DNA of 64,000 nt, taken from NCBI GenBank assembly GCA_938002955.1, contig CALLAA010000050.1, positions 7,177 to 71,176 of the forward strand, given 5' to 3'. Within the stretch, counting starts at the first letter, position 1, and each line of letters opens with the position of its first letter. Below, in pieces: positions 3,930 through 50,205 of this stretch. The position numbers and the translations under genes were made by a program. The notes beneath the pieces were generated by a model. That model searched no databases. It was not told where the DNA came from and saw only the letters and a list, made by a program, of their open reading frames with translations. This stretch comes from an uncultured Acidimicrobiales bacterium (lineage in GTDB: Bacteria > Actinomycetota > Acidimicrobiia > Acidimicrobiales > SHLQ01).

Positions 3930-4502
3930 CTATGAAGCCACCGAGTCGAGAAACAGTCGATGGATCCTCGCGTCGGTGGCGAGTTCAGGGTGGAACGACG
4001 CACCGAGCGCGTTGCCCGACCGCACGAGCACCGCGTCTCCTCTGGACTCGGCCAGAACTTCGACGTCAGTACCGAGGCGCACGATCCGGGGCGCCCGGAT
4101 AAAGACCGCATGTACCGGATCGTCGGTCACCGTCGTCTCGAGCTCGGTTTCGAAGCTTTCGATCTGGCGCCCGTAGCCGTTGCGCTGCACCGCAATATCG
4201 AACCGACCGAATGACCGCTGATCGGGCCGACCATCCTCGATTTCGGTCGAGAGCAAGATCAGCCCTGCACAGGTGCCGAACACCGCCATGCCGTCATCGA
4301 TCCGAACCGCGAGCGGATCGAACAGTTCTGACGACTCGAGCAGCATCGACATCGTCGTGGACTCGCCACCTGGCATAACCAGTGCGTCGACCGCGTCGAG
4401 ATGAGACGGGCGTCGTACTTCAACGACGTCGGCGCCGAGCTCGGAAAGTTTGTCTGCGTGGGCCCGGAAGGCACCTTGCAGGGCGAGTACGCCGATCTTC
4501 AC
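3930..4502 (-). CDS. pdxT: PLP synthase glutaminase subunit
   Basis: GVLALQG, PGGESTT, GTCAG, FHPE. Confidence 0.96.
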
Positions 4503-14561: not shown

Positions 14562-15599
14562 ATGAAGCTCAGGACCCGATCGCTAGCGGTTGCTTCGGCG
14601 ACCATACTGGCCTCCACCCTCCTCGCCGCCTCACCGGCGGCAGCCCAGGAGACGTGCGGTGGCCAGGCGGCAACGATCGTCTCGAACGACGCGGTCATTC
14701 GCGGAACCGAAGGTGTCGACGTCATCGTTGCCGGAGACGGCAACAACCGCATCGAAGCGCTCGGCGGCGACGACCTCATCTGCTCACGCGCTGGTGACGA
14801 CGAGATCATCGCCGGCGACGGCAACGACTTCATCCGCGCTGGTGGCGGAGCCGACGTCGTGTTCGGTGGCGCTGGAGACGATCGCATGTTCGGCGGTTGG
14901 GGCGGGGACACGCTCAACGGCGGCGACGGCATCGACCGCATCTGGGGCGAGCAGAACCAGGACATCCTCAACGGTGGCGCCGGTAACGACATCATTCGTG
15001 GCGGCTTCGCAATCGACATCATGAACGGTGGCGCCGGTGACGACTTCATGGTCGCCGGCTTTGGTCGCGACGAGGTCTTCGGCGGACTCGGCAACGACCG
15101 CATGTACGGACAGGGATACGCCGACGTCATGGACGGCGGCTTCGGCGACGACTGGATTCACGGTGGCCCGGGCCCCGATGACATCCTCGGCGGCCGTGGC
15201 AGCGACACGATCATCGGCGGACCCGACGACGACTTCTTGCTCGGCGATGACGGCAAGCAATACGACGAGGGTGGCACCACGATCACCCATCCAGGCGAGC
15301 CGGACATCATCAACGGCGGTCCAGGAAACGACTACCTCGGCGGCGAAGGCGGCAACGACATCCTCCTGGGCAACCAGGGCCTCGACGTCGTCGACGGATT
15401 CCACGGAAACGACCGGGTCGAGGGCAACTTGGCAAACGACCTGCTCAGCGGTGGAGCGGGCAACGACGTGCTCATCGGCGGCAGCGGCGCCGACAAGTGC
15501 TGGCCAGAATTTGTCGTCGTAAGCGCCGGTGTCGTCCCGCCGATCAACGGCAACGACAGCACCCGCGAGTGCGAACAGATCAACCAGATCCTGAACTGA
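14562..15599 (+). CDS. Secreted calcium-binding protein with RTX-type GGxGxD repeats
   Basis: Sec signal (AAA-QE) followed by many GGAGND/GGxGDD nonapeptides. Confidence 0.88.
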   Translation: MKLRTRSLAVASATILASTLLAASPAAAQETCGGQAATIVSNDAVIRGTEGVDVIVAGDGNNRIEALGGDDLICSRAGDDEIIAGDGNDFIRAGGGADVVFGGAGDDRMFGGWGGDTLNGGDGIDRIWGEQNQDILNGGAGNDIIRGGFAIDIMNGGAGDDFMVAGFGRDEVFGGLGNDRMYGQGYADVMDGGFGDDWIHGGPGPDDILGGRGSDTIIGGPDDDFLLGDDGKQYDEGGTTITHPGEPDIINGGPGNDYLGGEGGNDILLGNQGLDVVDGFHGNDRVEGNLANDLLSGGAGNDVLIGGSGADKCWPEFVVVSAGVVPPINGNDSTRECEQINQILN

Positions 15600-32207: not shown

Positions 32208-34592
32208 GTGATCAGCGAAAATCTTGCGGGGAAACGTATCGCCGTCACCGGGTCGACCGGCTTTCTCGGAACCGCGCTTATCGAACGCCTCATCCGATCC
32301 GTCCCCGACTGCGAACTCATACTTCTCGTTCGTCCTGGGCGACGCGGTGCCCAAGCTCGCGTCACCCGAGACGTCTTGAAGAACGACGCCTTCGACGGTC
32401 TCCGCGCCGCACTGGGCAAAGACGACTTCGCCGAGATGTGCACGCGACGGGTGCGCGCGGTTGCTGGAGATGTCGGCACCGACGGCCTCGGCCTGTCTGG
32501 TGAAGACCTCGAACTCTGGCTGACCGCCGATGTGATCATTCACTCCGCGGCGACCGTTTCCTTTGACTCCCCGCTCGACACCGCAGTCGAGGTCAACCTG
32601 CTCGGTCCGCAGCGAATTGCGAACCTGTGTAACGAGCACGGGGTGTCCCCGCATCTCGTGGCGGTGTCCACGTGTTACGTCGCAGGTAGCCGCCGCGGCG
32701 CCGCTCCCGAGCAACTCGTCGACGAAAGCCCCTACTTCGTCGAGGTCGACTGGCGGCGCGAAGTCGACGCAGCACGGCGAAGCCGCCTCGACGAAGAGAC
32801 TGCCAGTCGCCAACCAAAGCGCCTCGAGCAATTCCGGTCGGAGGCCCAACGAGAACTCGGCGCAGTCGGCACGCCAGCACTCGCGGCAAAGACCGAGACG
32901 ATCCGCCAAGCTTGGGTTACAACCCAGATGGTCGAAAACGGCCGTGCCCGAGCATCGTCGCTCGGCTTCCCGGATGCCTACGCATATACAAAGGCTCTCG
33001 GCGAGCTGGCCCTGGTTGAAGCCCGCGGCGAAATCCCGGTGTCGATCGTTCGCCCGTCGATCATCGAGTCGGCCTGGTCCGAACCAACCGCAGGTTGGAT
33101 CCGCGGCTTCCGCATGGCCGAACCGGTCATCATCTCCTACGCCCGTGGTCTACTGAGCGAATTCCCCGGTGTTCCCGAAGGTGTCGTCGATGTCATCCCC
33201 GTCGACATGGTCGTTGCCGCCATCGTCGCCGTTGCAGCGCGCGGCCCCAAAGACGACGGCCCCGATGTCACCCAGGTCGCCTCGGGAAGCGCAAACCCGC
33301 TGCGTTACAAGAACCTCGTCGACTACGCCGAGGATTGGTTCACGAGAAACCCGATCTACGACGAACTGGGACAACCAATCGCGGTCGCAGCATGGCAGTT
33401 CCCGGGCCGCGGCCGTGTCGAGAAGCAGCTCGTCCGTGCTCGAACGAGTCTCGAACGAGCCGACCGTGCGCTCGAGAAGTTGCCGCTCCGGGGAAGAACC
33501 GCCGAATTCGCCATGCAACTCCAGGCCCGCAAAGAGCTCCTCGACCAAGCCTCGGGGTATGTCGAGCTCTACGGCGCGTACGCAGAGTGCGAGGCCCTGT
33601 ACGGACTCGACAATCTGCTCGGGCTGTGGGCCGAACTTTCACCCGAGGACCAAGCCGCGTTCGGCTTCGACCCTCGAGTCATCGATTGGAAGCACTACGT
33701 CCAGAACGTTCACTTACCGTCGGTCGTTCGCCAGGCGCGTGCCAAGACGACCCCGGGAAAGAAGGTCGGCCCAACTCGATCGACACGATTGCGAGGCCAG
33801 GTCCTGTCCCCCGACCGCCAACTCGCCGTCTTCGATCTCGAGAACACGATCATCGCGTCGAACGTCGTCACCTCATTCGCGTGGCTGGCTACCCGGAACC
33901 TCTCCCCTCGCGACCGCGTGATCTTCGCGGCCAAAGCCCTGTCGCAAGGACCTGGTTGGCTCGCCCTCGACCGCAAGGACCGCAGCGACTTCCTGCGCAG
34001 CTTCTACCGCAACTATCGGGGTGCCTATACCGACCAGATCGAAGCTGACGCGCAAGAGCTCCTCAGCCACTATCTGCTCTCGAAGTCCTTCCCAGCCGCT
34101 ATCCGACGCGTCCGTGAGCATCGAGCGCTCGGCCATCGAACGCTGCTCATCACCGGAGCCCTCGAATTCGTCGTCGAACCACTTCGGCCGCTCTTCGATG
34201 ACATCATCTCCGCCGAGATGAGTTCGGTCAACGGGCGATACACCGGTGGCATGACCTCGGTCCCGCCCACGGCCGAGAACCGATACCAAGCGCTGGCCGA
34301 CTACGCCGCCGCCAACGACATCGACCTGCGCGAATCGGTCGCCTACGCCGACTCATCGAGTGATCTTCCGATGCTCGAAGCTGTTGGATTCCCCGTCGCT
34401 GTTAACCCCGAAACAAAGCTCGCTGCCATCGCCCGAAAGCGCGGTTGGTTGGTCGAGGACTTCCGTAAGCAGTCCGGGGCCCCCGGACGACCACTTCCTA
34501 TCGCGCCACGAACCGGCGCCCGTTCTGAACCGATGCTGAGCGCGATGATGAATCGCGGCTCTGGCCTCGCCAAGGAGAAAACCCGCCGATGA
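32208..34592 (+). CDS. Fatty acyl-CoA reductase (NAD_binding_4/male-sterility) fused to HAD-IB phosphatase
   Basis: GSTGFLG, HSAATVSF, YAYTK, RPSII, DVIPVD; C-terminal FDLENT and YADSSSDLPMLEAVG. Confidence 0.88.
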   Translation: MISENLAGKRIAVTGSTGFLGTALIERLIRSVPDCELILLVRPGRRGAQARVTRDVLKNDAFDGLRAALGKDDFAEMCTRRVRAVAGDVGTDGLGLSGEDLELWLTADVIIHSAATVSFDSPLDTAVEVNLLGPQRIANLCNEHGVSPHLVAVSTCYVAGSRRGAAPEQLVDESPYFVEVDWRREVDAARRSRLDEETASRQPKRLEQFRSEAQRELGAVGTPALAAKTETIRQAWVTTQMVENGRARASSLGFPDAYAYTKALGELALVEARGEIPVSIVRPSIIESAWSEPTAGWIRGFRMAEPVIISYARGLLSEFPGVPEGVVDVIPVDMVVAAIVAVAARGPKDDGPDVTQVASGSANPLRYKNLVDYAEDWFTRNPIYDELGQPIAVAAWQFPGRGRVEKQLVRARTSLERADRALEKLPLRGRTAEFAMQLQARKELLDQASGYVELYGAYAECEALYGLDNLLGLWAELSPEDQAAFGFDPRVIDWKHYVQNVHLPSVVRQARAKTTPGKKVGPTRSTRLRGQVLSPDRQLAVFDLENTIIASNVVTSFAWLATRNLSPRDRVIFAAKALSQGPGWLALDRKDRSDFLRSFYRNYRGAYTDQIEADAQELLSHYLLSKSFPAAIRRVREHRALGHRTLLITGALEFVVEPLRPLFDDIISAEMSSVNGRYTGGMTSVPPTAENRYQALADYAAANDIDLRESVAYADSSSDLPMLEAVGFPVAVNPETKLAAIARKRGWLVEDFRKQSGAPGRPLPIAPRTGARSEPMLSAMMNRGSGLAKEKTRR

Positions 34593-36196
34593 GCCCCCGC
34601 AAAGCACCTCGTCCTGGACTCGTGCTCGATGTCGACGCATCTACCCCGCCGGTTCTGTTCCACCACGGTGAGAACTTCCGCATGGAGAAGCTGCCGGTCG
34701 GTCGATCCCGAATCATCTACCCCGCCGAGCCACTGCGCGGGCTGACCGACCCCGATCAGGCGATCCGCGACGCACTCGAGAACCCGATCGACTCCGAGCC
34801 GTTGCGGGCGTTGATGACCGCCGACATGAAGCTCACCATCGCCTTTGACGACATCAGCTTGCCGCTCCCTCCAATGCGCAAGCCCGACATCCGCCAACGC
34901 GTGATCGAAGCGGTTCTCGACATCGCAGCCGAGGTCGGTGTGGACGATGTGCACATCATCGCTGCGCTTGCACTGCACCGTCGGATGACCGAAGACGAGC
35001 TCCGCCACGCCGTTGGCGACCGCGTCTATGACGCGTTTGCTCCGAGCGGACGGCTCTACAACCACGACGCCGAAGACCCCGATGGCATGACCCACCTCGG
35101 CACGACGAACCACGGCGAAGAGGTCCAGATCTCAAAGCGGGCAGTCGACAGCGACCTCACCGTCTACGTGAACATCAATCTCGTGTCCATGGATGGTGGC
35201 CACAAGAGCACGGCGACGGGCTTGTCCGGCTATACCGCGCTGCGACACCACCACAACGTCGACACGATGCAGAAGTCCACGTCGTTTATGGATCCGCCGA
35301 ACTCCGAGCTGCATACGAAGAACTGGCGACAGGGCGACGTCATTCGCAATGCCGGGGTGAAGATTTTCCAGATCGAAACGACGATCAACAACAACACCTT
35401 CGGCGAAACAGGGCCGCTGTCGATGCTGCAAAAGCGCGAGTGGGAATGGACGGGCCGCGACCGCGCCAAGTTCCTCGCAATGCAGGGCGGACTTAGCTAC
35501 ATGACCCCGTCGGCGCGCCGCAAGGTCTTCCACAGTTGGAAGGCCCCATACGAGCTGACGTCGGTTCAGGCCGGCGAGATCGAAGCGGTCCACAAGGTCA
35601 CGACCGAGAACACGTTTGCCCAGCACTTGGTCCCCGTCGAGGGCCAGACCGACATCATGACGATGGGACTCCCATACATTTCGCCCTACAACGTCAACTC
35701 GGTGATGAATCCAATCCTCGTCGCCGTGCTTGGACTTGGGTACTTCTTCAACCTCTACCGGGGAAAGCCACTCGTGCGCGAGGGCGGTGTACTCATCATG
35801 AGCCACCCAACGCCGTGGGACTTCAACCCCGTGCATCATCCGAGCTACATCGACTTCTTCGAACAGGTCTTGTCCGATACGACCGATCCGCACGAAATCG
35901 AGAAGAAGTACGAGAAGCAGTACGCCGAGGACGAGTGGTACCGGCACCTGTACCGCACGAGCTATGCCTACCACGGCGTCCACCCGTTCTACATGTGGTA
36001 CTGGTGCAGCCACGCCCTCCAACACCTCGGTCAGGTCATCATCGTCGGAGGCGATCCCAAGGCGGTCCGGCGTTTGGGCTTCCGCCCGGCCTCGACACTC
36101 CAAGATGCGCTCGAGATGGCGACCGACACGGTTGGGCCTCAGCCAACGATTACCCACTACCACAACCCGCCAATGCTCATGGCGGACGTGAAGTAG
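34589..36196 (+). CDS. Lactate racemase (LarA/DUF2088)-like domain protein
   Basis: ALENPI, IAFDDISLP, ALALHRRMT, NHDAE, GGHKS; ATGA overlap with upstream gene. Confidence 0.75.
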   Translation: MSPRKAPRPGLVLDVDASTPPVLFHHGENFRMEKLPVGRSRIIYPAEPLRGLTDPDQAIRDALENPIDSEPLRALMTADMKLTIAFDDISLPLPPMRKPDIRQRVIEAVLDIAAEVGVDDVHIIAALALHRRMTEDELRHAVGDRVYDAFAPSGRLYNHDAEDPDGMTHLGTTNHGEEVQISKRAVDSDLTVYVNINLVSMDGGHKSTATGLSGYTALRHHHNVDTMQKSTSFMDPPNSELHTKNWRQGDVIRNAGVKIFQIETTINNNTFGETGPLSMLQKREWEWTGRDRAKFLAMQGGLSYMTPSARRKVFHSWKAPYELTSVQAGEIEAVHKVTTENTFAQHLVPVEGQTDIMTMGLPYISPYNVNSVMNPILVAVLGLGYFFNLYRGKPLVREGGVLIMSHPTPWDFNPVHHPSYIDFFEQVLSDTTDPHEIEKKYEKQYAEDEWYRHLYRTSYAYHGVHPFYMWYWCSHALQHLGQVIIVGGDPKAVRRLGFRPASTLQDALEMATDTVGPQPTITHYHNPPMLMADVK

Positions 36197-36202
36197 GCCG
36201 CC

Positions 36203-37177
36203 ATGACCGCTGTTAGCAACTACCGAGCAAAGGTCTCCCAGCGTCTTGCCGGCACCGAGGTTCCCCTCGTCGGCAAGCTACGCAAACCCCTTCAGGCGCT
36301 CCCGTTTCCGTACACGGCACCGACCGTGCCCCAGACGGTAGAGGCCCCGGAGAAGCGGAGCGTGACGGGCACCAACTTCCCGACAGACTGGGCTCGCACC
36401 GAGCCCGCTCGACGCACGCGTGCGGTCCTGATCGACACGATGGTTCGACCAATGATGGCGGGGCTTGCTCAGCCGACCAAGCGCGGCACCGATCGCCTCG
36501 ACGGACTCGTTGGACCTGCCGTCTTTGCCGCGAACCATCACAGTCATGTCGACACCCCCTTGCTGCTCAGCTCGCTACCGATGCCGTGGCGGCACCGCGT
36601 CGTCATTGGAGCCGCAGCCGACTACTTCTTTGGCACGCGGGTCACCGGAGTACTTTCCGCCTTGGTGATCGGCGCAATTCCGATCGACCGGACCAAGATC
36701 AGTCGAGCGTCGACAGACCTTGCGCGCGACCTGATCGACGAAGGGTGGTCGCTCGTCGTCTTCCCTGAAGGTGGCCGAAGCCCCGACGGCTGGGGTCAAC
36801 CGTTCCGCGGCGGCGCTGCCTTTATTGCCCAACGGACCAAGGTTCCCGTGGTTCCAGTCCATATCGAGGGCACCGGTCGGATCCTGCGCAAGGGAAAGAG
36901 CACGCCGACCCCGAGCCGCACGACGATCACCTTTGGCGAGCCCATGTACTGCGGTCCCGACGAGGACGCCCGAGCGTTCAACGATCGGATCGAGGCCCGC
37001 GTCGCCGAACTCGCCGATGAAGCAATGACCAACTGGTGGGACGCTCGCAAGCGAGCACACGCCCAGGACACTCCAGCACTTACCGGACCGCAAACGGCTA
37101 CGTGGCGACGGGTATGGGAACTCGACGCGGACCGGCCCAGACGCAACGGTCCGAAGTCTCGGAGCTGGCCGAAATAA
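36203..37177 (+). CDS. PlsC-type lysophospholipid acyltransferase
   Basis: ANHHSHVD, AAADYFF, FPEGGRS. Confidence 0.9.
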   Translation: MTAVSNYRAKVSQRLAGTEVPLVGKLRKPLQALPFPYTAPTVPQTVEAPEKRSVTGTNFPTDWARTEPARRTRAVLIDTMVRPMMAGLAQPTKRGTDRLDGLVGPAVFAANHHSHVDTPLLLSSLPMPWRHRVVIGAAADYFFGTRVTGVLSALVIGAIPIDRTKISRASTDLARDLIDEGWSLVVFPEGGRSPDGWGQPFRGGAAFIAQRTKVPVVPVHIEGTGRILRKGKSTPTPSRTTITFGEPMYCGPDEDARAFNDRIEARVAELADEAMTNWWDARKRAHAQDTPALTGPQTATWRRVWELDADRPRRNGPKSRSWPK

Positions 37178-37250
37178 CTCCCCGAAGTCCGGGTTCTCGG
37201 GGGTCTTGCTCCCGATTGGGACCGAAGTGGTACCCGAGCGTTCTATAACA

Positions 37251-37596: not shown

Positions 37597-40311
37597 ATGA
37601 GGCTGGGTGACGCACACGAGTGGCGGGCGAGACTATCGAGTCACGTCTTTTCTTCGGTCCATCCAACGGTCATTGCGGCCCCTCCAGGGTTCGGCGTCGC
37701 AACCATTGCGGCCCACGTCCAATCCAGCGAGCAGGCCGTGCCAGCAACCGTCCTCGATCTCGACTCGGCCGACCCTTCGCGGCTCGGCATCGAGAAGTTG
37801 CTCCGTAAACACGTCGTCTTCACCGGCCGCGAGATCCCGAACCTGGCCCAAATCCCAAACGCCCAGCTGATCGACCACCAACTCCTGCGCTTTACCGAAC
37901 GCGAAGCGATCCTGGAAGCGGAGCGCCTGGGGGTCGATGAGTCGGTCGCTCGTTCGATCCATCTGTTCACCCGCGGCTGGCCCGAGTATTTCTGTGCGTG
38001 TCTCGACGTGGCGCGCCAGATCGAAGGATTGGGTCCGTCGGAGGCATACGACCGACTGCACCAGGGTCCCCACCTGCAACCGCTCATCGATGCGTGCACC
38101 ATCGAACTCTCCAGCTCTGACCGCCACCAAGTCGGCCAGCTCACGCACTTCACGAAGATTTCGCCGGGCATCATCTCGTCGTTGCTCGGCACTCGCGGCC
38201 TCGCACGGATCCAACGTGCAGGACTGCCGATCGTGGAGACCCATCCGGGCTGGTATGAAATCCTCGAGCCCGTCCGTTCATCGTTGCGATCGAAAGCCAC
38301 TCTCGACGAGCAAACCGCCAGGTCCCTCGCCCCAGAACTCGTTGCGGATGCCGGCATGGTCGCCGGAGCCCGCATTCTGTTGACCGCTGGACAGCCCGCA
38401 GCAGCAGCGACCGCGCTCCGTTCGGTACCGGTCCACAAACTCGATGAAGGAAGCCAGTCGTTGCTGCTTTCGTTGCTGCGGACGGTACTCGACACCGAAA
38501 AGGATGACGGTTCGCTGCATCTTCGCCTGGCCCGGGTGCACCATAATCACGGCGATCTGATCTCGATGCGCCGGACCCTCCAACAGGCGGCCACCATCGC
38601 CGAAGACCAACTGCGCCCCGATCTCGAGATCGAAGCCAAGGCCGAACTGCTCTTGCTCGATCTTCCCGACGCCGACGAAGCGGCCGTCCGGGCACGCCAC
38701 CGAGACCTACTCGAGCAAGCCCGGGATCATGCCAGCTCCTTGGCGCAGATCCGCTTGCGCGAAGTCGAGGTCATTCTCGCGATCCAGAACGGCGACCTGC
38801 AGGGGATGTATCAAGCAGCCACCAACCTGGAGTCGGTCGCCAACGACTGGGAACTCGTCGGCGAGCCAGCACGCGCCTCATCGGCGATTCGTGTCTTGGC
38901 GAGCTCGGCGCTGTTTCACTTCGGCAGCTACGCCCGGGCAATCGATGCACTCAATCGGGCATGCGAACTTGCCAACGGACAACCCCAGGCGTCGTTGAAG
39001 AGCCTCACGTTGCTCGAACGAAACTACGCAATGCTGGGCGATGTCGAGCTCGCTACGAAGACGAGCCAGAAGGTCGATGAGCTGCTCGACGGCGCAGGCC
39101 TGCCATGGATCGATGCCTACCACGGTTGGTCGGCCATGATTCTCTCTGGCTACCGGCAAGATCGCGACGCGGTCATCAGCAACCAGCGACGCGCCGAAAC
39201 GCTCCTCGGAAGCTTGTTCAGCCACCCGACCGGAGCGGTGTTCCTCGCCGATGCAGCCGTCGCTGCTGCTGCGGCTGGAGACTACGACGCAGCGAGTGCT
39301 TTCCTCGACCGGGCGCTTGCCCGCACGGTTGAATCGCCCGTCGATGTCGGATGCGCAGCGATCTATGTTGCTGCGCTTCGTCGCGATCCAGGGGTACGGG
39401 AAATGGCGGCCGAACTTCGACAAGCCGAGGAGATTCCCCTCGAGCGAGAATGGCGAATCGACCTCGCCGTTGCGCTGTCGGAGGGACGGACCGACACCGA
39501 GTACGCCGAGGAGGGGGCCAACCGGTACGGCCTCGGAACGCTCTACGACACGATGGTTCGCTGCTTTACCGCAACCCCGAACTCGCCAAAGGTCCGTTTG
39601 CAGCTATTGGGCAACTTTGTGGTGCAAGCGTCCGATGGCGAGCGGGTGATCTCCGGCGGGAAAGCCACCGAGCTCGTCAAGTTCCTCGGTGTTCGACTCA
39701 AGGCGGTACCCGTCGATGTGGTTATTGAGCACCTCTGGGGCGACGTTCCAACCGATGTTGGCCTTCGTCGCTTGAAGAACGTCGTCAGCCGGGCGCGAAA
39801 CGCCCTCGGCCAAGACGCCGTCGAACGACGTGGGCAGTCCATTGGGCTGAGCACCGATGTCTCGTCGGACCTCATCGAAGTTCGGGATCTCCTCCGACGC
39901 CTACGCACCCATCCCGACGACGTCGCGGCAGCAACCGCCGTCGTCGACATGTATCAGGGGCCGTTACTCGAGCTCGATGTGTATCACGACTGGGTCGACT
40001 CGGAGCGCAGGTCGCTCGAAGTCGCGGTCTCGTCAGCACTCGAGCTTGTTGTCGACCACGGCGAAGCGTCCGCGTCATGGGCGCTCGATGCTCTGCGCCG
40101 GCTTGCGCCGGCGGACGAACGGCCGTTTATGGCCGTCGCCGACCTTGCACACCGGCACGACGACGTTGCCACATTGCAGCTTGCGCTCGATGAGGTCCGC
40201 CGGGTTTGCGACGACCTCGAGGTCCGGCTGCCAACCGGCTTCGACCGGTTAGCAGCCCGAATCTCGGTATCAGCCGGTCCAGATTCCGACAGCTCCTTCG
40301 AGGGTTCCTGA
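37597..40311 (+). CDS. MalT-like regulator: degenerate STAND NTPase, TPR-like repeats, C-terminal wHTH/BTAD
   Basis: APPGFGVAT, LRFTEREA, TRGWP; C-terminal LQLLGNF, IEHLWGD, LKNVVSRAR, YQGPLL..DWVDSER. Confidence 0.82.
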   Translation: MRLGDAHEWRARLSSHVFSSVHPTVIAAPPGFGVATIAAHVQSSEQAVPATVLDLDSADPSRLGIEKLLRKHVVFTGREIPNLAQIPNAQLIDHQLLRFTEREAILEAERLGVDESVARSIHLFTRGWPEYFCACLDVARQIEGLGPSEAYDRLHQGPHLQPLIDACTIELSSSDRHQVGQLTHFTKISPGIISSLLGTRGLARIQRAGLPIVETHPGWYEILEPVRSSLRSKATLDEQTARSLAPELVADAGMVAGARILLTAGQPAAAATALRSVPVHKLDEGSQSLLLSLLRTVLDTEKDDGSLHLRLARVHHNHGDLISMRRTLQQAATIAEDQLRPDLEIEAKAELLLLDLPDADEAAVRARHRDLLEQARDHASSLAQIRLREVEVILAIQNGDLQGMYQAATNLESVANDWELVGEPARASSAIRVLASSALFHFGSYARAIDALNRACELANGQPQASLKSLTLLERNYAMLGDVELATKTSQKVDELLDGAGLPWIDAYHGWSAMILSGYRQDRDAVISNQRRAETLLGSLFSHPTGAVFLADAAVAAAAAGDYDAASAFLDRALARTVESPVDVGCAAIYVAALRRDPGVREMAAELRQAEEIPLEREWRIDLAVALSEGRTDTEYAEEGANRYGLGTLYDTMVRCFTATPNSPKVRLQLLGNFVVQASDGERVISGGKATELVKFLGVRLKAVPVDVVIEHLWGDVPTDVGLRRLKNVVSRARNALGQDAVERRGQSIGLSTDVSSDLIEVRDLLRRLRTHPDDVAAATAVVDMYQGPLLELDVYHDWVDSERRSLEVAVSSALELVVDHGEASASWALDALRRLAPADERPFMAVADLAHRHDDVATLQLALDEVRRVCDDLEVRLPTGFDRLAARISVSAGPDSDSSFEGS

Positions 40312-40383
40312 AGCGAGCGCCGAGCCAGCTGCTGCGCCGAGCACCGCTGAAGCGGTGAGGATCAAACGTTTGATGGACTTCAT
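40270..40383 (-). CDS. Small secreted peptide (37 aa), candidate signalling pro-peptide
   Basis: MKSIKRLILTASAVLGAAAGSALA-SGTLEGAVGIWTG*; AAAGGA SD; n/h/c regions with ALA cleavage site. Confidence 0.65.
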   Translation of the reverse strand: MKSIKRLILTASAVLGAAAGSALASGTLEGAVGIWTG

Positions 40384-40588
40384 GTCGTGGGGTCCTTTGG
40401 GTTGAGGTACCCACACCAAACATCGGGGTCGTCCCAGTCGGGTCAGCGCTTTTGCTGGGACTCGATAGGGACCGCAGCACTCTCAGTACCGGCCCCGCAA
40501 TCCGCCTCTCGATCTGCGTACGTGCGCACGCGTGCGGTTAGCAATCCTGCGTGAAGCGGTTGTCTCGCGGTGTCGAAACAGCGAGGGC

Positions 40589-41155
40589 TCAGATTTCTCC
40601 GGCAGCGCACACAACGAACGCGTGGGCTTCAAAGGGGTCCAGCCCCACCCCAAAATTTGGGGAATCGAAGACGTCGTCGGCGTAGACCTCGATCAGCTGA
40701 TCGACGATGCAGGTGGCATCGTCGGTGCTACGTCCGAGGAACGTCAGCCGCTCGATCGCCCGTTGGCGTCGTAGGCCGGCGTCCGAGCCCGCTGGTTCGG
40801 AGTAGTCGGCACCGCCCGAGACGCCACTCGCGGATGGTTCGGGATCTGTTGCTGGCTGGTTGGTTACCTGCGCCCCAGCTACTGCAACCTCGAGAGCCGA
40901 ACCACTTCCAATACACCGGCCCGAGGCTCCCACGAGCGCTTCGTGGTCTTGCGGCGTCCGGTCTCGTCGAGGATCCGCGGCCTGTAGACGATCGAGTGCG
41001 TCGAGCGTGTCGGCCATGCATGTCGCCTCGGCATGGTTCGCTCCTGTCGTTTGGAGCGCGACGATCGCATCTTCACGAACGAATGTGTCCTGACCAGCAC
41101 ACGACGAGAGCAAAACGACAGCGAACAACACCCGGAGCGGGCGTCGATGAATCAC
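40589..41155 (-). CDS. Hypothetical lipoprotein with duplicated Cys-containing helical domain
   Basis: LSSC lipobox; EATCMADTL and DATCIVDQL repeats. Confidence 0.7.
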   Translation of the reverse strand: MIHRRPLRVLFAVVLLSSCAGQDTFVREDAIVALQTTGANHAEATCMADTLDALDRLQAADPRRDRTPQDHEALVGASGRCIGSGSALEVAVAGAQVTNQPATDPEPSASGVSGGADYSEPAGSDAGLRRQRAIERLTFLGRSTDDATCIVDQLIEVYADDVFDSPNFGVGLDPFEAHAFVVCAAGEI

Positions 41156-41270
41156 ACGGCGAACCACAACATGTCCGTCGGCAGTGACGCATCAAGGTTG
41201 AGTTCCCGGATCTCTCCGGCCCCGGCACGGTAAGCTTGCAGTGTTTGCCGAGCAACCGAGGTATCGCCAC

Positions 41271-43553
41271 GTGGCCGTTTACGCCAACACCCCTATCGAA
41301 CTGATCAACGCCGTCTACGGCACGCTCGATGAGCGTCTTGCGAAGGGCCGTGAGCGTCTCGGCCGTGCATTAACCCTCACCGAGAAGATCTTGATCAACC
41401 ACCTCGACGACGTCGACACCGGTGGTATGGAACGGGGCGTCAGCTACACCGACCTTCGACCCGATCGTGTCGCAATGCAGGACGCCACCGCACAAATGGC
41501 ATGGCTGCAGTTCATGACCGCGGGCCTTCCGCAGACCGCAGTGCCCACCACAACGCACTGCGACCACCTCATCCAAGCCCGTGTCGACGGCAAGACCGAC
41601 CTTGCGGTCGCTGCCGACACCAACAAAGAGGTGTACCAGTTCCTTGAGGATGTCAGCGCCAAGTTCGGTGGCGGCTTCTGGGCCCCGGGCTCGGGCATCA
41701 TCCACCAGGTTGTGCTCGAGAACTATGCGTTTCCCGGCGGCATGATGCTCGGCACCGACAGCCACACGCCAAACGCTGGTGGCCTCGGCATGATCGCAGT
41801 GGGCGTTGGCGGTGCCGACGCAGTTGATGTCATGACCGGGTTTCCGTGGAACGTCCGCTGGCCGAAGGCAATCGGTGTTCACCTGACCGGTGAACTCACC
41901 GGCTGGGCTGCACCAAAGGACGTCATCTTGAAGGTCGCCGAGATCCTCACCGTTAAGGGCGGAACCGGCTCGATCGTTGAGTACTTCGGCCCTGGCGCCG
42001 AAAGTATGTCGGCCACTGGCAAGGCCACGATCTGCAACATGGGCGCCGAGATCGGTGCGACGACGTCGTTGTTCGCCTACGACGACGCCACGAGCCGCTA
42101 TCTCAAGGCAACCGGCCGCGAAGAGATCGACGACGCTGCCCGCAAGGTCGCCCATCACCTGCGGGCCGATGACGAGGTCTACGCCAACCCTGGCGACTAC
42201 TTCGACCAGGTCATCGAAATCGACCTCAGCACGCTCGAGCCGCTGATCAACGGTCCACATACTCCTGACCTTGCTCGTCCGCTCAGCAAGCTCGGTGCCG
42301 AAGCCGAGCTCAACGGATGGCCCAAAGAGATCTCCGCTGCTCTTATTGGCTCCTGCACGAACTCGTCATACGAGGACATCAGCCGCGCTGCCTCGATCGC
42401 TCGTGACGCTGCGGCCAAGGGTCTCACCGCCAAGGTGCCGTTCATGGTTACCCCCGGCTCGGAAGCAACGATGCGCACGATCGAACGAGACGGCTTCCTG
42501 GCCGATCTCGAAGCGATCGGCGGCGTCGTGCTCGCCAACGCTTGCGGCCCGTGCATTGGCCAATGGAAGCGTGATGACCGCGAAGGCAGCGAAGGCACCG
42601 CCAACAGCATCGTGACCTCCTACAACCGAAACTTCCCGAAGCGCAATGATGGCGATGGCGCCACGCTCGCCTTTGTGACGTCGCCCGAGACAACGGTTGC
42701 GCTCGCCCTCGCTGGCACCCTCGACTTCGATCCAAAGACCGACACCCTCACAAACGACGCTGGCGAAGAGGTCATGCTCACCGTGGGCGCTGCCATCGAA
42801 CTACCGAGCGCTGGGTTCGAGGACGGCACCTCGATGTTCATTGCGCCTCCAGAGGATGCGAGCAACATCGATGTCTCGGTCTCGCCGGACTCGGACCGAC
42901 TCCAGCTCCTTACGCCATTCCCTGCATGGGACGGCAACGACTACCTCGAACTGCCGATCCTCGGTAAAGGCATGGGCAAGGTCACCACCGACCACATCTC
43001 GATGGCAGGACCATGGCTCAAATACCGCGGTCACCTCGAGAACATCTCGGGCAACCTGTACCTCGGTGTCGTCAACGCCTACACCGGTGAGAGCGAACTG
43101 GCCGTCGACCCATCCGATGGCCAGACCAAGAGCTACCCAAACATCGCAAAGAGCCTGCACGAAAAGGGCATCAATTGGGTGTTCATTGGCGAGGACAACG
43201 TCGGTGAGGGCTCGAGCCGCGAACACGCTGCGATGGAGCCCCGATTCCGCGGTTGCCATGCAGTCTTTGCCAAGTCGTTTGCTCGCATCCATGAGACAAA
43301 CCTGAAAAAGCAGGGCGTGTTGGCACTGACGTTTGCCGACCCGGACTTCTGGCTTGCAATCGAAGAGGGCGACACGATCTCGATCACCGGCCTCGCCGAG
43401 CTCGCTCCCGGAAAGCCAGTCGACTGTGTCTTGCACAAAGCCGATGGCGAGAGCATCGAGTTCCAAGCAAACCAGACGCTCTCCCCCGATCAGATCGAGT
43501 GGTTCCATGCTGGTTCTGCACTCAACCTGATTCGACAGCAGACAGCAGGCTGA
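41271..43553 (+). CDS. acnA: Aconitate hydratase (mitochondrial-like type)
   Basis: DRVAMQDATAQMA, HCDHLI, IGSCTNSS, ACGPCIG, GEGSSREHAA. Confidence 0.94.
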   Translation: MAVYANTPIELINAVYGTLDERLAKGRERLGRALTLTEKILINHLDDVDTGGMERGVSYTDLRPDRVAMQDATAQMAWLQFMTAGLPQTAVPTTTHCDHLIQARVDGKTDLAVAADTNKEVYQFLEDVSAKFGGGFWAPGSGIIHQVVLENYAFPGGMMLGTDSHTPNAGGLGMIAVGVGGADAVDVMTGFPWNVRWPKAIGVHLTGELTGWAAPKDVILKVAEILTVKGGTGSIVEYFGPGAESMSATGKATICNMGAEIGATTSLFAYDDATSRYLKATGREEIDDAARKVAHHLRADDEVYANPGDYFDQVIEIDLSTLEPLINGPHTPDLARPLSKLGAEAELNGWPKEISAALIGSCTNSSYEDISRAASIARDAAAKGLTAKVPFMVTPGSEATMRTIERDGFLADLEAIGGVVLANACGPCIGQWKRDDREGSEGTANSIVTSYNRNFPKRNDGDGATLAFVTSPETTVALALAGTLDFDPKTDTLTNDAGEEVMLTVGAAIELPSAGFEDGTSMFIAPPEDASNIDVSVSPDSDRLQLLTPFPAWDGNDYLELPILGKGMGKVTTDHISMAGPWLKYRGHLENISGNLYLGVVNAYTGESELAVDPSDGQTKSYPNIAKSLHEKGINWVFIGEDNVGEGSSREHAAMEPRFRGCHAVFAKSFARIHETNLKKQGVLALTFADPDFWLAIEEGDTISITGLAELAPGKPVDCVLHKADGESIEFQANQTLSPDQIEWFHAGSALNLIRQQTAG

Positions 43554-47964: not shown

Positions 47965-48036
47965 CACGACTTTTCACATGTCACATGCCGCATCTCCGAT
48001 GTGGCCATATTCCTTGCCTGGTTTACCCTGGCCGCA

Positions 48037-50205
48037 ATGACGTCGTCGCAATCTCTCCGCGCCCGCACGGGCCGATTGTGGGGACTCCTCGCGGGCTGTG
48101 TGCTCGCTACAACCCTCGCGGCTGTGCCTGCCGGGGCCCAAGACATCGCTGGCCTGGAGCCGCAACCTCCACAGATCGATGATTCGGTTGCCGAGGAGAC
48201 GATCGGTGACAGCGAGCTCGCCGAACTCGCCGCTGACCCAGCGAGTGCTCCGCACGGCACCACCGTCGACGTCGAGGTCCACGGCCCCGACCTTGCAATC
48301 GTCACCGCAGCTATCGAAGCAGCTCACGGCGAGCCGTACGGACGAGTACCCGGTTTCTTCGTCGAGGCTCGAGTGCCGGTCTTTGCGCTGGAGCGTTTGA
48401 ATGCAACGAACGGTGTCACTCGAGTAGCACAGGTAACGACGGCGATTCCGGCGTCGCAGTCGTTGCAGATAAACCCAGCGCTGACGAACACGATCGAGAA
48501 CACCCTGCAGCTCAAAGCCTGGCACGACGTTGGACACAAAGGTGTCGGACAAAAGGTCGGCATCCTCGACATCTTCGGCACCGAGGAACTCGAGTTTGCT
48601 ATTGCGCAAGGCCGCGTCCCGGCGCCGGCGGGAACGTTCTGCCAAGAAAAGGGCCGTTCGTGTGCAATTACCGTCCGCAATGGCGGACCTCACGGAGTGG
48701 CCGTGGCCGAAATCATCCATCGGGTCGCTCCCGACGCCGAGCTGTACTTCGCAACGGTTGCGACCATTGGAGACCTTGCCGCTGCGATCGATTGGTTTGC
48801 CGAACAAGGGGTCACGGTCATCAACCGGTCCGAGACCTCCGAGTTCGACGGGGCCGGCGACGGCTCGGGTCCAACAGCAGCCCTTGTGAACCGGGCCGTG
48901 TCACAAGACATGATCTGGGTCGCCGCTGGCGGTAACGCTGGAGGCAGCGAGGACCGGCCGGGCCAGAACTGGATTGGGCAATTCAACGACCCGGACGGCA
49001 ACGGCTTCCACAATTGGGCCGACGGTTCGGAGCGCATGGGGTTTACCTGCGGCTTCCTCCTCGGCATGCGTTGGGACGACTGGGACACCTCGACGATCGC
49101 CACCGACTACGACATCTGGATCTACGACGATGAAGGCGACCTGACTCCAGAAGCACGAGGCGAGGACACACAAAACGAGGCTGCCCATCGCCCACTCGAG
49201 CACATCGAGACTCGCTGCTCGGGATCGACCGACCGCGACTACCTCGCGATCCGCCGCTTCGGCGACCCCCAACCCGACGGCGTCGACACCATCCAGATCC
49301 TCGGTAATCAAACGTTGATGGACGAATGGGTCAACGAGAGTGCAGCGACGGGGCCCGGTGCAGATTCACGAAGCACCGGAGCGTTAACGGTGGGAGCAAC
49401 AGTCCAGCCGGCAAGCCCGCTGCTCGCCGACTACTCATCACACGGCCCCACCTTCGACGGCCGCAACGGCGTTGACCTCGCCGGGCCCTCGTGTTTGCCA
49501 GTCCCGGACTTTTTCAACTTCTGTTTCTCCGGTACGAGCGCGAGCGCGCCGGTCGTGAGCGGCGTCATGGCGGTCATGCGCGGCGCAAACGTCATCGACA
49601 ACGCCACCGACGCAGAGGGGCTCATCCCGAAGATCACCGTGGACCAAGGCGAGGAGGGCGCCGACACCCGCTACGGCCACGGCAGCCTCTCGCTCCCTGC
49701 GCCTGTCGACCTCAACGCACGCTCATTCCTCCCATCGTGCGCAGGAGTCCCGGCGACGATCGTTGGAACCAACGGAGACGATGTTCTCGTCGGCACAGAA
49801 CGTCGTGACGTCATCTTTGCTGGCTTGGGCAACGACACGGTCAACGCGCTCGGCGGAGACGATCTGATCTGTGGTGGTTTCGGCGATGACACCATCGACG
49901 CAGGCGACGGCAACGACACCATTCTGGGTGGACCGGGCGCCGATCGGATCCGCGGTCGGGGTGGCGCCGATGACATCAACGGCGGCCACGGCCACGACGA
50001 CATCGAAGGCAACGCTGGAAACGACGAGTTGAAGGGCTTTACCGGACGCGACTACGTCAAGGGCGGTCTCGGCGACGACGCTGTCTTTGGGGGCGCCGGA
50101 AACGACCGACTCGTGGGAGGCAAAGGCCTCGATGAGCTCTTTGGCGGCAACGGCGTCGACCGCTGTCGAGTCCCGGTCGAAACAACGGTGAGCTGTCGCC
50201 CCTAG
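48037..50205 (+). CDS. Secreted S8 (subtilisin-like) peptidase with C-terminal RTX-type repeats
   Basis: VGILD, HGVAVA, AGGN, GTSASAP; GGxGxD repeats; leaderless TACCCT-7nt-ATG. Confidence 0.88.
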   Translation: MTSSQSLRARTGRLWGLLAGCVLATTLAAVPAGAQDIAGLEPQPPQIDDSVAEETIGDSELAELAADPASAPHGTTVDVEVHGPDLAIVTAAIEAAHGEPYGRVPGFFVEARVPVFALERLNATNGVTRVAQVTTAIPASQSLQINPALTNTIENTLQLKAWHDVGHKGVGQKVGILDIFGTEELEFAIAQGRVPAPAGTFCQEKGRSCAITVRNGGPHGVAVAEIIHRVAPDAELYFATVATIGDLAAAIDWFAEQGVTVINRSETSEFDGAGDGSGPTAALVNRAVSQDMIWVAAGGNAGGSEDRPGQNWIGQFNDPDGNGFHNWADGSERMGFTCGFLLGMRWDDWDTSTIATDYDIWIYDDEGDLTPEARGEDTQNEAAHRPLEHIETRCSGSTDRDYLAIRRFGDPQPDGVDTIQILGNQTLMDEWVNESAATGPGADSRSTGALTVGATVQPASPLLADYSSHGPTFDGRNGVDLAGPSCLPVPDFFNFCFSGTSASAPVVSGVMAVMRGANVIDNATDAEGLIPKITVDQGEEGADTRYGHGSLSLPAPVDLNARSFLPSCAGVPATIVGTNGDDVLVGTERRDVIFAGLGNDTVNALGGDDLICGGFGDDTIDAGDGNDTILGGPGADRIRGRGGADDINGGHGHDDIEGNAGNDELKGFTGRDYVKGGLGDDAVFGGAGNDRLVGGKGLDELFGGNGVDRCRVPVETTVSCRP

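Follow-up and report, generated by a model that had tools for sequence, protein, structure and literature searches.

Does a reading frame of 37 codons at the 3' end of a large regulator gene encode a peptide, and could this peptide be a signal that the regulator perceives? The question is raised by a stretch of 64,000 nucleotides (nt) from an uncultured Acidimicrobiales bacterium (GenBank assembly GCA_938002955.1, contig CALLAA010000050.1, positions 7,177 to 71,176 of the forward strand), which we call the window; positions count from its first letter. The source genome comprises 3.93 Mb in 270 contigs and is called G000 here. A sequence-only reading of the window had predicted a hidden gene for a secreted peptide next to a TPR-type regulator and had suggested that the two form a signalling module. 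Our data establish a conserved set of regulator, small gene and candidate operator; they stop short of signalling.

The small open reading frame is a gene

The small open reading frame (ORF) of 37 amino acids (aa) and the motif in front of it are located as follows:

40270..40383, minus strand: 37-aa small ORF, based on translation, the ratio of nonsynonymous to synonymous substitution (dN/dS), same-length relatives and a profile search
40393..40398, minus strand: Shine-Dalgarno-like AAAGGA, 9 nt before the ATG of the small ORF; AAAGG is conserved in aligned upstream regions

The frame begins with ATG at 40383, runs for 37 codons and ends with TGA at 40272-40270. Its product, MKSIKRLILTASAVLGAAAGSALASGTLEGAVGIWTG, has a basic N-terminus, a weakly hydrophobic core rich in Ala, Gly and Ser, and a conserved C-terminal G-x-W-x-G. 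The mechanical ORF list gives a longer 49-aa form starting at a TTG; the relatives share the ATG form only. The regulator ORF lies on the plus strand at 37597-40311 (904 aa). Both frames are convergent and overlap by 42 base pairs (bp) at 40270-40311. The ORF with its AAAGGA motif and the overlap with the tail of the 904-aa regulator are thus confirmed as the sequence-only reading had described them.

In tblastn the peptide matched a 37-aa frame at each of the four orthologous loci, located at the 3' end of the regulator gene, with E-values of 1e-19 to 2e-9, which refer to a small database of related genomes. At the paralogue locus, too, there is a 37-aa ORF, and its C-terminus likewise ends in W-x-G. 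An ORF of this length is present at nine loci of the clade, and the length among relatives ranges from 33 to 55 aa. Start, stop and length of the small ORF are kept at 49-59% amino-acid identity. dN/dS according to Nei-Gojobori was 0.07-0.48 in all 10 pairs of five orthologues, with saturated synonymous sites in the pairs that include the paralogue of 36% identity. The closest pair, G000 and its 90% relative, is distinguished by five synonymous changes and a single conservative Leu/Ile change. The overlap with the regulator frame was 42, 42, 54, 4 or 9 nt depending on the locus, or was replaced by a gap of 175 nt. Therefore the tail of the regulator cannot account for the conservation of the small ORF. 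We conclude that the 37-aa ORF is a genuine gene under purifying selection.

Pfam and NCBIfam searches gave no match for the peptide, a search of the ESM Atlas gave no usable one, and tblastn in its own genome detected the peptide itself only (next best E 0.036).

On the plus strand, 40375-40395 contains a 9-bp hairpin followed by a T-rich run that looks like a terminator of the regulator gene. On the minus-strand RNA it would enclose the start codon and part of the Shine-Dalgarno motif of the small ORF. The hairpin was seen in G000 and its 90% relative only.

Pairing of the small gene with the regulator

When 41 related genomes were searched with the regulator, orthologues at 90, 59, 58 and 49% identity and a paralogue-like copy at 36% were obtained. 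The regulator is present in 8 of 26 genomes of the genus (E<=1e-20), in 20 of the 301 genomes sampled from the order (E<=1e-30; this tally includes the unpublished genome G089, and about half of the 20 match the C-terminal domain only), and in 2 of 400 further genomes from the phylum (E<=1e-40). In the G295 family 1 of 61 genomes carries it. The related genomes are not independent and represent about seven separate lineages.

The 3' ends of regulator genes were inspected with a fixed filter for a convergent ORF of 30-60 aa that starts with ATG, carries Lys or Arg among its first residues, a 15-residue hydrophobic stretch and an aromatic residue within the last four positions, is preceded by a Shine-Dalgarno-like motif and has its stop within -150 to +450 nt of the regulator stop. 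The filter was passed by 13 of 17 regulator loci. Two of the failures have flanks of 33 and 280 nt only; G156 and G097 failed outright. Three metagenome loci with 47-49% identity all possess a 37-aa ORF ending in W-S-C and all pass. With a regulator match of E<=1e-100 or an identity of at least 47%, 16/16 loci have the small ORF; the E-value cut was set after the result was known. Thus the flank scan of regulator homologues that the sequence-only reading had suggested revealed a convergent small hydrophobic ORF, with an aromatic residue among its last four, at every close locus. As a control, the filter was applied to the ends of all ORFs of at least 300 aa in G000. It passed 5 of 2307 (0.2%), one of them being the finding itself. 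Because of this control rate, the purifying selection, and the conserved position and length in relatives, the small ORF is far beyond chance.

A profile of the nine 37-aa peptides matched six places in 5 of the 26 genus genomes, all of them beside a regulator gene. While these matches follow from the construction of the model, its informative part is the absence of orphans: no orphan peptide gene was detected in the 26 genomes, 21 of which were without any match. A scan for related loci returned just the five already known in genome contigs and none in viral contigs. The neighbouring genes vary by lineage, e.g. an acyltransferase and a lipoprotein here and an EamA-like membrane protein elsewhere, so the pair alone is conserved. 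Hence the small gene is tied to the regulator family across different gene neighbourhoods.

Domain architecture of the regulator

The regulator was divided into the following segments:

37597..38307, plus strand: MalT-like STAND nucleotide-binding domain and arm, residues 1-237 (profile match to MalT 8bob)
38308..39576, plus strand: TPR-like helical repeats, residues 238-660, the presumed sensor (Pfam TPR, helices of the AlphaFold2 model, 6mfv)
39577..40272, plus strand: SARP domain, i.e. winged helix and BTAD, residues 661-892 (AfsR profile match, Foldseek)
40273..40311, plus strand: regulator tail, residues 893-904 and stop, disordered and non-conserved; overlaps the small ORF

No source provided a name for this protein. 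Pfam reported weak TPR matches only (TPR_14 with 23.6 bits at a cut-off of 23.5, and weaker TPR families) and no winged-helix or BTAD match at E<=0.01; Trans_reg_C appeared at 0.048 in one of nine family members only. NCBIfam returned nothing but a weak match to MamA. A PDB search with a profile of nine sequences gave no matches, and a profile of 101 family sequences was needed. With the latter, the N-terminal third matched MalT (8bob, E 8.6e-34, profile positions 2-358), the C-terminal quarter matched the SARP domain of AfsR (8jke, 8k60; E 1.3e-14), and TPR proteins were matched in between. The AlphaFold2 model had a mean predicted local distance difference test (pLDDT) of 93.8 and a predicted template modelling score of 0.81, and residues 238-660 formed an all-helical repeat region. 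Foldseek returned 6mfv, a STAND protein with a TPR sensor, as the best match, and also Avs3 and MalT. The AfsR SARP structures 8hvr_I and 8k60_I were matched with template modelling scores of 0.58-0.59 over the target, 8hvr_I with 0.59. Profile, model and Foldseek matches therefore indicate the order STAND nucleotide-binding domain, TPR sensor and SARP output. As predicted from these comparisons, the regulator belongs to the MalT-type STAND/TPR proteins and carries its SARP output C-terminally. The TPR-like helices, the C-terminal winged helix with BTAD and the MalT/SARP-type scaffold in an actinobacterium, all of which had been read from the letters alone, were borne out.

In the tail pLDDT drops to 61 and then to 44, and orthologues lack it or have a different one. 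The frame-specific guanine-cytosine (GC) signal for coding of the regulator fades at about 40210-40240. The last residues of the regulator are encoded by the reverse complement of the codons for S-G-T-L-E-G-A of the peptide.

The regulator family contains 347 clusters at E<=1e-30 and 2410 at 1e-10, with members of about 770-1000 aa. Identity per domain was uniform over the nucleotide-binding, TPR and SARP parts, which gives no indication of a fast-evolving sensor. The Walker A motif reads GFGVAT, with the lysine replaced; this protein and its four closest orthologues share GFGV[AGS]. The family consensus keeps GxGK, and G020 and G022 have GFGKT.

Boxes upstream of the small gene and the regulator gene

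Short repeated boxes precede both genes:

40468..40472, minus strand: box A, GTCCC, 89 nt before the ATG; same position in 9/9 clade loci
40457..40461, minus strand: box B, GTCCC, a direct repeat following box A by 11 nt, 78 nt before the ATG
40431..40435, minus strand: box C, GGGAC, an inverted copy 52 nt before the ATG
37218..37234, plus strand: GGGAC followed 11 nt on by GGTACC, about 370 nt upstream of the regulator start

In the aligned upstream regions of the small gene all nine clade loci have direct GT(A/C)CC boxes at about -87 and -76 and an inverted copy at about -50. More distant loci have two to five GGTACC boxes within the same 150 nt. In an unbiased count of 5-mers upstream of the small ORF in 12 lineage representatives, GGTAC/GTACC was the most enriched (39 occurrences versus 3.2 expected, in 9 of 12), and GGGAC/GTCCC occurred 16 times versus 3.5 expected. 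The commonest interval between neighbouring boxes of the same orientation was 11 nt (10 of 31). The three-box pattern has two sites in the 3.93-Mb genome, this one and C177:7688. Furthermore, a box pair with 11-nt spacing is present upstream of the regulator gene at five of nine loci examined. According to excerpts from PMC10936776, the direct repeats recognised by SARPs are spaced by 11 or 22 bp. Because the 11-nt spacing is that of SARPs, the GT(A/C)CC boxes are likely the operator of the regulator.

We also considered an RNA helix. RNAalifold pairs box A with box C with one compensatory change. Yet in L060 box A is GTCCC and box C is GGTACC. Thus the RNA helix was rejected and the boxes were read as protein-binding sites. 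Rfam gave nothing at E<=0.1 for 40200-41300; one weak match to RsmW (E 0.72) at 40698-40815 lies outside the small ORF and the boxes.

Two observations outside the window concern similar motifs. G000 contains a near-palindrome, GGTACC-W-GGTAC(C), at 32 sites in 18 elements, usually as two copies about 8 nt apart with flanking A/T runs (e.g. C4:13210, C19:12328, C25:10838 and 10949, C47:4541, C145:619, 33060 and 33879). Several of these sites fall between called ORFs of at least 150 aa. The near-palindrome may serve a global regulator as operator or represent a small repeat element, and has a period of 7 nt versus the 11 nt of the boxes at the peptide gene. In addition, L041 (G156:C114) carries a distant regulator homologue (E 2e-70) with a GGTAC-N6-GGTAC pair at 4187-4203, 74 nt past the stop. 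A co-directional gene for a secreted PKD-domain protein follows from 4391, and the contig ends within it.

Features of the peptides

The peptides were compared at 16 loci. The best 19-residue window disfavours membrane insertion in 15 of 16 by +0.9 to +4.4 kcal/mol (Hessa-type scale). A simple -3/-1 rule places an AXA-like cut in each of the 16 such that 10-17 residues would be left, and the mature 13-mer proposed in the sequence-only reading corresponds to one of several AXA-like cuts that this rule permits. The last five residues are the most recognisable, being G-x-W-x-G, G-x-W-x-C or G-x-[WFH]-x-I, and in most peptides Glu, Asp or Gln stands 7-10 positions away from the end. The G295 variant of 55 aa combines a classical signal-like start with a hydrophilic middle of 26-30 residues and the conserved aromatic C-terminal end. 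Its long hydrophilic pro-region and conserved end point to a released C-terminal peptide.

Some variants (L058-L060, L040) end with Cys, as in W-S-C and P-W-I-C, in place of Gly or Ile. This Cys could hint at a modification or a disulfide.

Comparison with known systems

Excerpts from PMC3679016 describe that group III shp genes are downstream of and convergent to rgg, and that mature SHPs are their precursor's C-terminal portion with Asp or Glu as the first residue. Our locus is alike in that a tiny gene for a product with basic N-terminus and hydrophobic body is located convergent and downstream of a repeat-containing cytoplasmic transcription factor. The conserved acidic residue 7-10 positions from the end of our peptides may be compared with the acidic start of mature SHPs. 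In Rgg/SHP systems the peptide gene itself is a target of the regulator (PMC3679016); here candidate boxes precede the peptide gene. Unlike Rgg, which is an HTH-TPR protein of about 280 aa, the receptor here would be a STAND-TPR-SARP protein of 904 aa, and the phylum is Actinomycetota. The listed PDB profile and Foldseek matches contain no sequence or fold match to Rgg, and NCBIfam gave no SHP match for the peptide.

The signature of RRNPP systems comprises a pro-peptide of 10-100 aa, export via Sec and signal peptidase I or via PptAB, a receptor of 250-500 aa, TPRs, and adjacent genes (PMC10075063, in part). The pair shares three of these five, i.e. the small peptide (37 aa), a TPR receptor and gene adjacency. 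As to export, simple rules show that the N-terminus is basic, that the hydrophobic core is weak and that AXA-like sites are present. On the other hand, the receptor has 904 aa instead of 250-500 aa, a C-terminal SARP instead of an N-terminal HTH, and a STAND domain. There is no Rap, Rgg, NprR, PlcR, PrgX or AimR among the 60 of 229 PDB matches (E<=1) that were listed, and no RRNPP receptor among the listed Foldseek matches. Because receptor length and fold differ, the pair, as judged by profiles and the model, is not a member of the RRNPP or Rgg families, although it may still work like one. Membership in RRNPP, to which the sequence-only reading had drawn its parallel, is thus dropped: 904 aa exceed the 250-500 aa of these receptors, and homology to them was not detectable.

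AfsR and AfsS of Streptomyces share with our pair the same three domain types, a small neighbouring ORF, direct repeats phased by 11 nt and an actinobacterial host (PMC10936776, in part). Yet the domain order is reversed, with SARP N-terminal in AfsR and C-terminal here (residues 661-892 of 904). The nucleotide-binding domain is closer to that of MalT, and the small product is signal-peptide-like. AfsS is a cytoplasmic protein of 63 aa with no known similarity to the 37-aa peptide. In the SARP class in general (AfsR, DnrI, RedD) a winged helix is followed by BTAD as in our protein, but these are N-terminal.

MalT, the regulator of the maltose regulon of E. coli, has a homologous N-terminal nucleotide-binding domain and arm, followed by a helical-repeat sensor. 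MalT sites consist of several binding boxes in direct and inverted orientation, as seen here. In contrast, the output of MalT is a LuxR-type HTH instead of a SARP domain, and the Walker A lysine is missing in our protein. With respect to the STAND/MalT class, the homologous nucleotide-binding oligomerisation domain (NOD) is present and an intact Walker A motif, GxxGxGK[ST], is absent.

A possible autoinducing loop and its alternatives

We tentatively favor, with confidence somewhat short of even, an autoinducing cassette of two genes: the peptide gene would be switched on by the regulator, and the C-terminal peptide processed from its exported product would come back to the TPR domain as ligand. 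The C-terminal SARP domain would bind the boxes as a multimer and switch on the small gene, possibly also its own gene. The basic and weakly hydrophobic N-terminal part of the 37-aa pro-peptide would bring the product to or through the membrane, where a signal peptidase or an intramembrane protease would cut it. A C-terminal peptide of about 9-13 residues, ending in G-x-W-x-G, would then accumulate outside the cell, be taken up by an oligopeptide permease and bind to the TPR sensor domain. Binding would turn the regulator on and close a positive loop. TPR domains are ligand sensors in STAND and RRNPP proteins (excerpts of PMC10075063), and by analogy the cassette may act in the manner of Rgg/SHP or RRNPP systems while using another receptor scaffold. 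The genome has four loci for oligopeptide-type binding proteins.

Several points weigh against the loop. The loss of the Walker A lysine in the clade implies that the regulator may not switch as a canonical STAND protein. The central stretch G-A-A-x-G-S is conserved as strongly as the C-terminus; such conservation is atypical of a plain signal peptide, and a small membrane protein would account for it too. The sequence-only reading had named homologues without an adjacent peptide ORF as counter-evidence. Close homologues carry the ORF at 16/16 loci, but neither of the two distant homologues at phylum level does (0/2), nor do G156 and G097, and in G156 a gene for a secreted PKD-domain protein takes the place of the peptide gene behind the boxes. 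Together the distant homologues and G156 indicate that the regulator family can function without the peptide. No recognisable sigma-70-type promoter or -10 element was found upstream of the small ORF. Finally, the ORF filter and the box motif were both defined post hoc, and the relatives are non-independent.

The alternative that survives best, and that we consider quite possible if doubtful, is that the small gene is output only. The regulator would sense another ligand by its TPRs and activate a small membrane-associated or secreted effector without feedback. Pairing, purifying selection and boxes fit this view as well as they fit the loop. AfsR, also composed of SARP, NOD and TPR domains, activates the adjacent afsS through 11-bp direct repeats (PMC10936776, in part), the G-A-A-x-G-S core resembles a helix-packing motif, and the gene behind the boxes in G156 encodes an ordinary secreted protein. 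Yet the hydrophobic core is weak in 15 of the 16 peptides on the Hessa-type scale, and the G295 variant with its hydrophilic pro-region and conserved end suggests a released C-terminal peptide. Moreover, one-to-one co-occurrence without orphans and a conserved free C-terminus are more typical of ligand-receptor pairs. Taken together, what stands of the proposed signalling module is the genuine gene, the family-wide pairing, the Rgg/SHP-like layout and the 11-nt boxes; signalling as such is held with reserve because a pure output role fits nearly as well.

It is improbable that the peptide gives rise to a bacteriocin or a modified peptide natural product and that the regulator serves as SARP activator of the corresponding cluster. 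SARPs classically switch on biosynthetic clusters (excerpts of PMC10972967), and some peptide variants end with Cys. However, no conserved modifying enzymes, immunity genes or dedicated transporters are located beside the pair, the window is housekeeping chromosome with neighbours that differ by lineage, and what is presumed to be the mature part is short, has a neutral to acidic character and shows no Cys/Ser/Thr patterns. Even less credible is that the product acts as a small hydrophobic toxin in a type I toxin-antitoxin-like system, with antisense control by the 3' end of the regulator mRNA. Such a toxin would agree with convergent transcripts overlapping by 42 bp, a small hydrophobic product and the hairpin over its start codon, but relatives fail to keep the overlap (4 or 9 nt, or a gap of 175 nt), the hairpin occurs in G000 and G021 only, and a boxed promoter of its own together with a strict tie to a 900-aa regulator is foreign to type I systems. 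A chance ORF or a non-coding regulatory element mimicking coding conservation can practically be dismissed: although the GC-rich genome has many spurious ORFs and the region exceeds shuffled sequence in folding stability (z -2.99), synonymous changes are in excess, start, stop and length persist at 49-59% amino-acid identity, the control rate was 0.2%, and Rfam had no match at or below E 0.1.

The prevailing view is that cells of Actinomycetota signal to each other by small molecules of enzymatic origin and that peptide signals with cytoplasmic TPR receptors are a trait of Bacillota (PMC10075063, in part). Our searches of open-access papers and bioRxiv manuscripts turned up no system of the kind proposed here in Actinomycetota. 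With still more caution than the loop itself we therefore raise the possibility that this is the first genetically encoded peptide-pheromone system of the phylum, with an exported mini-peptide sensed inside the cell by a STAND (NLR-like) TPR-SARP receptor. If so, an NLR/MalT scaffold would have been used to build, independently, an RRNPP-like quorum-sensing circuit; uncultured marine Acidimicrobiales, with their conserved cassette of peptide and receptor, would carry peptide signalling to another phylum; and a bacterial regulator of the STAND/NLR type would gain a candidate peptide ligand. Tools like RRNPP_detector would miss the cassette because they restrict receptors to 250-500 aa. Even on a cautious reading there is a new, unannotated family of small genes, together with a candidate operator and a nameless regulator family (347 clusters, E<=1e-30) that has several hundred members in metagenomes. 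As peptide, boxes and regulator are all defined, the system is easily tested.

Neighbouring genes and other features of the window

An ORF of 192 aa at 40589-41167 on the minus strand has a putative lipoprotein start (LLSSC) and repeated segments containing Cys. Frame-specific GC favours it over an overlapping plus-strand ORF of 205 aa, and it had no match in Pfam or NCBIfam. It was rejected as a part of the module since it is conserved in the three nearest relatives only.

Directly upstream of the regulator, 32208-37177 on the plus strand contains an operon-like set consisting of a fatty-acyl reductase/HAD hydrolase fusion, a protein with a LarA N-domain and an acyltransferase, the position of the latter being kept in the three nearest orthologous loci. 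This set may belong to the regulon. Finally, the window encodes two RTX-repeat proteins on the plus strand (14562-15599 and 48001-50205); one consists almost entirely of calcium-binding nonapeptide repeats, and the other is fused to a subtilase domain.

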